This document shows positions 58,358 to 58,935 of a DNA stretch of 64,000 nt, in pieces. Where the stretch lies: the NCBI RefSeq assembly GCF_003334305.1, contig NZ_QOWS01000004.1, one strand, 5' to 3'. The position numbers and the translations under genes are program-made. This DNA comes from Escherichia coli (lineage in GTDB: Bacteria > Pseudomonadota > Gammaproteobacteria > Enterobacterales > Enterobacteriaceae). Numbering within the stretch: the stretch's first letter is position 1; every line of letters starts with the position of its first letter. The notes under the pieces are model-generated. The model made no database searches, had not been told where the DNA came from, and was given only the letters and a program-made list of their open reading frames with translations.

Positions 58358-58935
58358 TGGTTTATCCCCGCTGGCGCGGGGAGCTCAACATCGGAAACGG
58401 CTTCGCGGCGGCGGCGTCCGGTTTATCCCCGCTGGCGCGGGGAGCTCTACGTGAAGAATATTTGCAACACCCGCAAGAACGGTTTATCCCCGCTGGCGCG
58501 GGGAGCTCGGCATAGCCAGGCTGATCCGGCGACGGCCTTACGGTTTATCCCCGCTGGCGCGGGGAACACTGTTCGGCGGGGCGGTAGTACCACTGTTTTT
58601 TCGGTTTATCCCCGCTGGCGCGGGGAACACATCAACATGCAGCGCGAACGGCTGCCCCTCGCCGGTTTATCCCCGCTGGCGCGGGGAACACTCTTATTCA
58701 GTCCCCTTTTCCATCTGCTGTGGCGGTTTATCCCCGCTGGCGCGGGGAACACGTAAATTGCGACGTCCTGCGCCAGTAATTCAACGGTTTATCCCCGCTG
58801 GCGCGGGGAACACGATGCGGCAGCGGCGGCGGGAAGTTATCGCGGCGGTTTATCCCCGCTGGCGCGGGGAACACCTTTCAATATAGTCAGAAAAGTCTTT
58901 TGGCAACGGTTTATCCCCGCTGGCGCGGGGAACAC
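58358..58935 (-). CRISPR. CRISPR array 2: 10 repeats with 9 spacers of 32 bp, no adjacent cas genes
   Basis: Exact 61-bp period from 58358 to 58907; the three low-coordinate repeats end GGGGAGCTC and the first starts with T; the leader motif is on the high-coordinate flank. Confidence 0.96.

Follow-up and report, generated by a model that had tools for sequence, protein, structure and literature searches.

The ten-repeat array at 58358-58935 of the window (the whole 64,000-nucleotide stretch of Escherichia coli DNA that was analysed) is the E. coli CRISPR2.3 locus, a type I-E array which is transcribed from the minus strand and is situated between ygcE and queE (ygcF). The AGCTC endings of its three leader-distal repeats very probably constitute a single inherited block, which is locked to the old spacers of the array and was for the most part copied during spacer acquisition. 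The T with which the terminal repeat begins is a fixed flank base of the locus and is the product neither of decay nor of a mutation in the strain's own lineage.

Locus identity and array polarity

The window is a segment of the E. coli chromosome, in which iap, array 1 and the cas gene set are followed, approximately 17 kb further on, by ygcE, a CRISPR remnant, array 2 and queE (Table 1). The flanking genes were named, and the region labelled as CRISPR, from RefSeq annotations of loci that are identical or homologous to it. The leader lies on the queE side, and the E. coli literature refers to the locus as CRISPR2.2/CRISPR2.3 (PMC3903273). Array 2 is made up of ten 29-nt repeats and nine unique 32-nt spacers, with every period measuring 61 nt. 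Array 1, located in the iap-cas2 interval, incorporates thirteen fully identical AACAC repeats with zero trailer-end variation, unlike array 2. Approximately 450 bp past the trailer of array 2, the CRISPR2.2 remnant retains two recognisable repeats with AACAT endings and a third, heavily decayed copy (CGGTTTATCCCTGTTTTTACAAGGAATAT), and its sequence is nearly unchanged in every one of the 21 E. coli loci compared. This remnant represents genuine decay, in contrast to the AGCTC block.

Table 1. Features of the CRISPR-cas region in the window; counts refer to RefSeq complete E. coli genomes
Feature	Position	Strand	Remarks
Terminal (leader-distal) repeat, CRISPR2.3	58358..58386	-	RNA sense GAGCTCCCCGCGCCAGCGGGGATAAACCA; AGCTC ending and T (RNA-sense A) at the PAM-derived position
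Oldest spacer, sA	58387..58418	-	Plus strand AACATCGGAAACGGCTTCGCGGCGGCGGCGTC; 486/5,426 genomes, 10/21 comparison loci
Second AGCTC repeat	58419..58447	-	Source of the 3' hairpin handle for the sC crRNA
Spacer sC	58448..58479	-	Plus strand TACGTGAAGAATATTTGCAACACCCGCAAGAA; 452 genomes
Third AGCTC repeat	58480..58508	-	Source of the 3' handle for the sD crRNA
Spacer sD	58509..58540	-	Plus strand GGCATAGCCAGGCTGATCCGGCGACGGCCTTA; 392 genomes
Seven canonical repeats and six younger spacers	58541..58935	-	RNA sense GTGTTCCCCGCGCCAGCGGGGATAAACCG
AT-rich CRISPR2.3 leader	58936..59050	-	25 % G+C across 58936-59100; same flank in all comparison loci
Degenerate CRISPR2.2 remnant, downstream of the trailer	57765..57910	-	Two to three repeats, decayed, with AACAT/AATAT endings
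Array 1 (CRISPR2.1, iap-cas2 interval)	31897..32657	-	13 repeats, all canonical AACAC; terminal repeat C-start
Type I-E cas genes cas3, cse1, cse2, cas7, cas5, cas6e, cas1	33047..41312	-	NCBIfam equivalogs

Scoring of the cas genes covered Cas3, Cse1, Cse2, Cas7, Cas5, Cas6e and Cas1e, and Cas6e was recognised by a match to TIGR01907 (283 bits) among the NCBIfam equivalog profiles. Cas3 and Cse1 (36953-41312) pass the general type I-E models and score well below the equivalog cut-offs of PRK09694 (423 vs 569 bits) and PRK09693 (100 vs 576 bits), respectively. The latter two models presumably represent the K-12 Cas3 and Cse1 proteins and, if so, this strain possesses the majority 'cas-E1' variant and not the 'E2' variant of K-12. 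Both of these cas variants have been described in E. coli (PMC3903273). Just past cas3, a match to the sok antitoxin RNA (Rfam RF01794, 113 bits; 41644-41801, minus strand) indicates a chromosomal hok/sok-type toxin-antitoxin locus beside the cas operon. An Rfam gathering-threshold scan of the window recovered sok only and no CRISPR repeat family, and was thus of no help in orienting the arrays.

The polarity of array 2 could be established from several features. In RNA sense the canonical repeat (GTGTTCCCCGCGCCAGCGGGGATAAACCG) matches the published GWGTT consensus (PMC3338789), and array 2 is thus read on the minus strand, which is also the strand of array 1 and the cas operon. The high-coordinate flanks of arrays 1 and 2 are homologous, sharing an identical 14-nt block (ACAATCTACCAACT) and several others, while the low-coordinate flanks are not, and since this flank of array 1, on the cas2 side, abuts the cas operon, it can be taken to be the leader. 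Among 5,426 complete genomes, spacers become less widely shared from the trailer towards the leader, with sA, sC and sD present in 486, 452 and 392 genomes, respectively, the fourth spacer in at most 77 and the newest in at most 68; shared spacers are known to sit leader-distal in E. coli arrays (PMC3903273). A scan for consensus promoters and terminators across 57700-59300 did not identify any promoter on the minus strand of the leader, its matches being no more numerous than in shuffled sequences. The first-pass annotation had inferred the same polarity, rightly placing the variant repeats at the leader-distal, and hence oldest, end, and had added that these variants support the polarity independently. 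They do lie at the leader-distal end, but as a signal they are weak and redundant beside the homologous leaders, the direction of the cas operon and the gradient in spacer sharing.

Variant endings and the terminal base among E. coli genomes

On the plus strand, the repeats at 58358-58386, 58419-58447 and 58480-58508 read (T/C)GGTTTATCCCCGCTGGCGCGGGGAGCTC, with the ending GGGGAGCTC (AGCTC), while the seven repeats in 58541-58935 read CGGTTTATCCCCGCTGGCGCGGGGAACAC, with the ending GGGGAACAC (AACAC). The first base of the repeat at 58358 is T, and that of the other nine repeats is C. On re-reading, both the coordinates and the description that had previously been given for the three variant repeats and the terminal T proved to be exact. 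When compared with the published E. coli repeat consensus (GWGTTCCCCGCGCCAGCGGGGATAAACCG, with a GWGTT start; PMC3338789), the seven canonical repeats match exactly and the three variant repeats differ only at position 4 (T to C), with the terminal repeat differing at position 29 as well. The probability of three variants among ten repeats being clustered at the trailer end is 1/120, and given that the same two-base differences occur in all three repeats, they cannot be regarded as independent events. The complete genome of strain KSC9 matches the query region with 100 % identity and the entire array is identical in strain A7, so that the array sequence is not a sequencing error. Error as the source of the variant repeats is also ruled out by the linkage between variants and spacers and by the population counts.

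Three distinct endings are found at CRISPR2.3 in E. coli, namely AACTC (GAGTT in RNA sense), AGCTC (GAGCT) and AACAC (GTGTT). A single transition separates AGCTC from AACTC, and two bases separate it from AACAC. Using an exact-word search, AGCTC repeats were located in 472 of the 5,426 RefSeq complete E. coli genomes, in every case on the chromosome and in one to three copies, never more. AGCTC is an ordinary polymorphism, occurring in approximately 9 % of complete E. coli genomes. Its linkage to particular spacers is close to invariable, with exact matches showing that the trailer-side repeat of sC ends in AGCTC in 451/451 genomes and that of sD in 390/391 genomes, while the repeat of a further spacer, sB, ends in AACTC in 9/9 loci. 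The first-pass annotation had named a GAGCTC variant at the leader-proximal end in related strains as the observation that would speak against its reading. Such an arrangement was found in 0/4,077 genomes with this leader, among which a synthetic query joining the AGCTC repeat to the leader gave no exact full-length match. Beyond E. coli, an exact scan of 100,044 species-representative genomes with the 28-nt AGCTC repeat returned zero matches, and no species represented there thus has AGCTC as its main repeat. A relaxed scan for the hairpin together with AGCTC returned mostly single chance matches and a few actinobacterial arrays, and no paper was found in a literature search with the variant repeat string.

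The arrangement of the endings could be followed in individual comparison loci. The fullest array (L019) reads, from the trailer inward, T-AACTC sA, AACTC sB, AGCTC sC, AGCTC sD and AACAC, a monotonic order, and in a second locus (L140) a further spacer flanked by AGCTC is found inside the AGCTC block. A third (L015) reads T-AACTC sA and AGCTC sC, lacks sB and represents an intermediate of the window's own lineage, while in a fourth (L005) the AACTC repeat of sB stands unconverted between AGCTC repeats. The terminal repeat beside sA ends in AGCTC in 268 genomes and differs by at least one base in 218, being AACTC in all of the latter that were read. Across the 22 arrays read, the terminal repeat is AACTC in fifteen, including those of the K-12 type, BL21, O157 and unrelated spacer groups. 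As AACTC also occupies this position in unrelated spacer groups, the terminal AGCTC state is derived, a secondary change in a sub-lineage which arose through point mutation or conversion from the adjacent repeat.

These arrangements bear on the suggestion that gene conversion generated the entire block, with one internal repeat changing to AGCTC and the change then spreading to neighbouring repeats without spacer acquisition. The terminal repeat does appear to have gained AGCTC secondarily while lying beside AGCTC repeats, as such spreading would predict. However, the sB repeat of L005 has stayed AACTC between AGCTC repeats, sB is associated with AACTC in 9/9 loci, the variant is restricted to three copies or fewer in all 472 genomes in which it occurs and, apart from the terminal repeat, no array was observed in which AGCTC had extended to the repeats of other spacers. 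Spreading by conversion is thus barely credible as the origin of the block.

The terminal T follows a different pattern to that of the AGCTC ending. It was present at this site in 22/22 arrays read, which include those of a K-12-type O16:H48 strain, a BL21(DE3) derivative, O157:H7, O111:H8 and arrays with unrelated spacers. The flank joined to a T-start terminal repeat was matched exactly in 3,246/5,426 complete E. coli genomes, and the flank joined to a C-start terminal repeat gave zero exact full-length matches among the same 5,426 genomes. The view that the T is a mutation of this strain is contradicted by these counts, C being found in none of them. The first base of the terminal repeat on the plus strand corresponds to the last base of the repeat in RNA sense, and in E. 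coli this base has been shown to derive from the PAM, arriving along with each new spacer, and not to be passed on when the repeat is duplicated (Swarts et al. 2012, PMC3338789). The site would normally hold a G, carried in with each spacer from an AAG or ATG PAM, while the terminal repeat, with no spacer after it, would retain the original flank base as its last base. Among the internal repeats, the first base on the plus strand is C in 222 cases, A in two and T in one, with the exceptions tied to particular spacers, as expected for a spacer-linked base.

The exceptional internal repeats occur at positions 2414 of L008, 2853 of L013 and 2905 of L007. In L008 (an O16:H48, K-12-type strain) and L013 the variant base lies beside the same neighbouring spacers. 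Repeats of this kind, starting with A or T, fit spacers that were captured with a PAM not ending in G. Spacer sC overlaps a different spacer of strain 2014C-3599 (L006, 2760-2791) by 23 nt, with an offset of 9 nt. The L006 locus is an unrelated AACTC-type array, and the overlap implies two independent acquisitions from one source. From this overlap an ATG PAM could be deduced for sC, the one spacer to which the deduction applies, and its G matches the repeat base. Neither sC nor its overlapping neighbour had a phage match in the phage and plasmid collections that were searched for the source, and a lone 'plasmid' match was rejected as it is a 4.8-Mb E. coli record that carries the spacer itself.

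Proposed history of the variant block

Given the observed anatomy of the array, the linkage of variants to spacers, the genome counts and the polarity, we infer an order of events with copying as the main mechanism. New spacers are added at the leader, with each addition duplicating the leader-proximal repeat, so that a change in that repeat passes to every later unit and is then frozen in place. The ancestral CRISPR2.3 repeat may have had a GAGTT start in RNA sense (AACTC on the plus strand). A single T to C change in the repeat that was then leader-proximal would have converted GAGTT to GAGCT (AGCTC), and sC, sD and at least one more spacer would have been acquired in the AGCTC state. The leader-proximal repeat may subsequently have become GTGTT (AACAC), either by mutation or through recombination with another array, and this state would have been carried by all younger units. 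In the window's lineage sB would then have been lost through recombination between repeats, and the terminal repeat would have changed from AACTC to AGCTC by point mutation or by conversion from its neighbour. A strict 'mutate and copy' order is beyond proof from present-day arrays, and the terminal AGCTC is not the outcome of copying alone. The switch from AGCTC to AACAC comprises two substitutions, and no unit in an intermediate state survives between them. Furthermore, some arrays (L004, L017 and L019) return to AACTC nearer to the leader, from which it follows that recombination between arrays, which has been documented in E. coli (PMC3903273), also contributes.

Recombination could also be given a larger part, in that the sA-sD block with its AGCTC repeats may have been derived from another ancestral array and joined, within a repeat, to an AACAC array, in which case the boundary between the two endings would be a recombination junction. 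At this boundary the number of genomes sharing a spacer drops sharply, from 391 to no more than 77, which is consistent with such a junction, as are the distance of two substitutions between AGCTC and AACAC, the AACTC/AACAC/AACTC block mosaics of L004, L017 and L019, and the documented recombination of E. coli CRISPR arrays (PMC3903273). However, the AACAC-type spacers that follow sD differ per lineage, which continued acquisition after a switch of the repeat explains equally well, and a junction would leave the origin of AGCTC itself unexplained, with mutation and copying still required. A chimeric origin of the array is therefore considered unlikely. In the L004 locus, the CRISPR2.3 array of strain A23 is split by an IS421 transposase insertion (3368-4480) and forms an AACTC/AGCTC/AACAC block mosaic.

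Degenerate terminal repeats are common in CRISPR arrays, and the first-pass annotation had attributed the variants to the oldest repeats accumulating mutations. In its strict form, this would mean that the oldest repeats, being under the weakest constraint, had separately gained their substitutions in the strain's own lineage. The restriction of the variants to the trailer end and the general frequency of degenerate terminal repeats both accord with such decay, as does the later switch of the terminal repeat from AACTC to AGCTC in a sub-lineage. By contrast, the same pair of differences is present in all three repeats, the same repeat-spacer units recur exactly in 390-451 genomes, the T is fixed species-wide, and no private substitution is seen, the array being identical to that of strain A7. 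While the variants are limited to the leader-distal end, an independent origin for each repeat and lineage was not found, and separate decay is a very improbable account of them. What stands of the earlier attribution is that the variants occupy the oldest end; it does not extend to the T, which is fixed locus-wide, or to the AGCTC block, which is inherited, with only the AGCTC state of the terminal repeat being a later change.

Processing, significance and comparison with known systems

The variant bases correspond to positions +2 and +4 of the 21-nt 3' handle of the crRNA, upstream of and outside the hairpin. The predicted hairpin of 7 bp (-15.1 kcal/mol) is the same in all of the repeat variants, and the part of the repeat that forms the 5' handle is unchanged in each repeat with a real spacer after it. 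In vitro, neither Cascade binding nor target recognition requires positions +2 to +21 of the 3' handle, while the 5' handle is critical (PMC4288178). Lying outside the hairpin, the variant bases probably leave crRNA processing and Cascade function unaffected, and E. coli Cas6e likely tolerates GAGCU. The terminal T would be the -1 base of a 5' handle with no spacer behind it, and so should lack functional consequence. It is conceivable, albeit with a distinctly slim chance of being correct, that the GAGCU lead-in (which creates a self-complementary GAGCUC beside the hairpin) or the altered terminal repeat measurably affects the three oldest crRNAs in their processing by Cas6e or their loading into Cascade, or that the terminal AACTC-to-AGCTC change is the trace of directional gene conversion between neighbouring repeats. 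Were GAGCU to alter processing or loading, ancient spacers common to hundreds of strains would have been retained and yet be functionally muted.

A native GAGCU start ahead of a similar hairpin is found in some arrays of the Actinobacteria, where those of Pseudoclavibacter caeni, P. soli and an Arthrobacter MAG have a 61-nt period and a repeat that starts, in RNA sense, with GAGCTCCCCGC…GCGGGG. These 61-nt-period arrays are large, with that of P. caeni (L043) containing 158 repeats, and include two loci in P. soli (L037 and L038) and three in the Arthrobacter MAG (L044-L046). Their native GAGCU start suggests that such a lead-in is compatible with I-E-type repeats in general. However, they differ from the array in the window in their loop and 5' handle, belong to distant hosts and are I-E-like by period and repeat only, and thus say nothing direct about the Cas6e of E. 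coli.

Beyond annotation the importance of the variant repeats is small, and their uses are limited to those of an illustration and a lineage marker. They provide a natural illustration of how an array's history is preserved in repeat variants that were copied from its leader-proximal repeat, and of how the final 'repeat' base is in fact part of the spacer. Together with sA, sC and sD, the AGCTC block is usable as a lineage marker for about 9 % of complete E. coli genomes. For orientation heuristics, it follows that trailer-end variants may have been inherited as a block and need not reflect decay, and that a fixed, odd terminal base may be a mechanistic signature.

The array belongs to the CRISPR2.3 family of E. 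coli, which is well described, and the principles by which it is explained have already been published. It shares with the CRISPR2.3 arrays of K-12 and the ECOR strains its site, the 29-nt repeat and 32-nt spacer, the leader, the CRISPR2.2 remnant and the T-start terminal repeat, and differs from the published arrays in that three of its repeats have C rather than T at position 4 (GAGCT), outside the GWGTT consensus. In line with the PAM-derived last base described for type I-E repeats (PMC3338789), the last base is almost always G in the internal repeats here, with the rare A and T exceptions tied to particular spacers. The same principle is here extended to a terminal repeat without a following spacer, an extension that follows from the published mechanism (PMC3338789). 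Degenerate terminal repeats are a polarity signal of the type used by CRISPRDirection and CRISPRDetect, and the variants in the window are likewise leader-distal. They differ from decay as understood in that type of signal, however, in that they form a conserved block common to hundreds of strains, represent mostly one copied change, and are neither private nor progressive.
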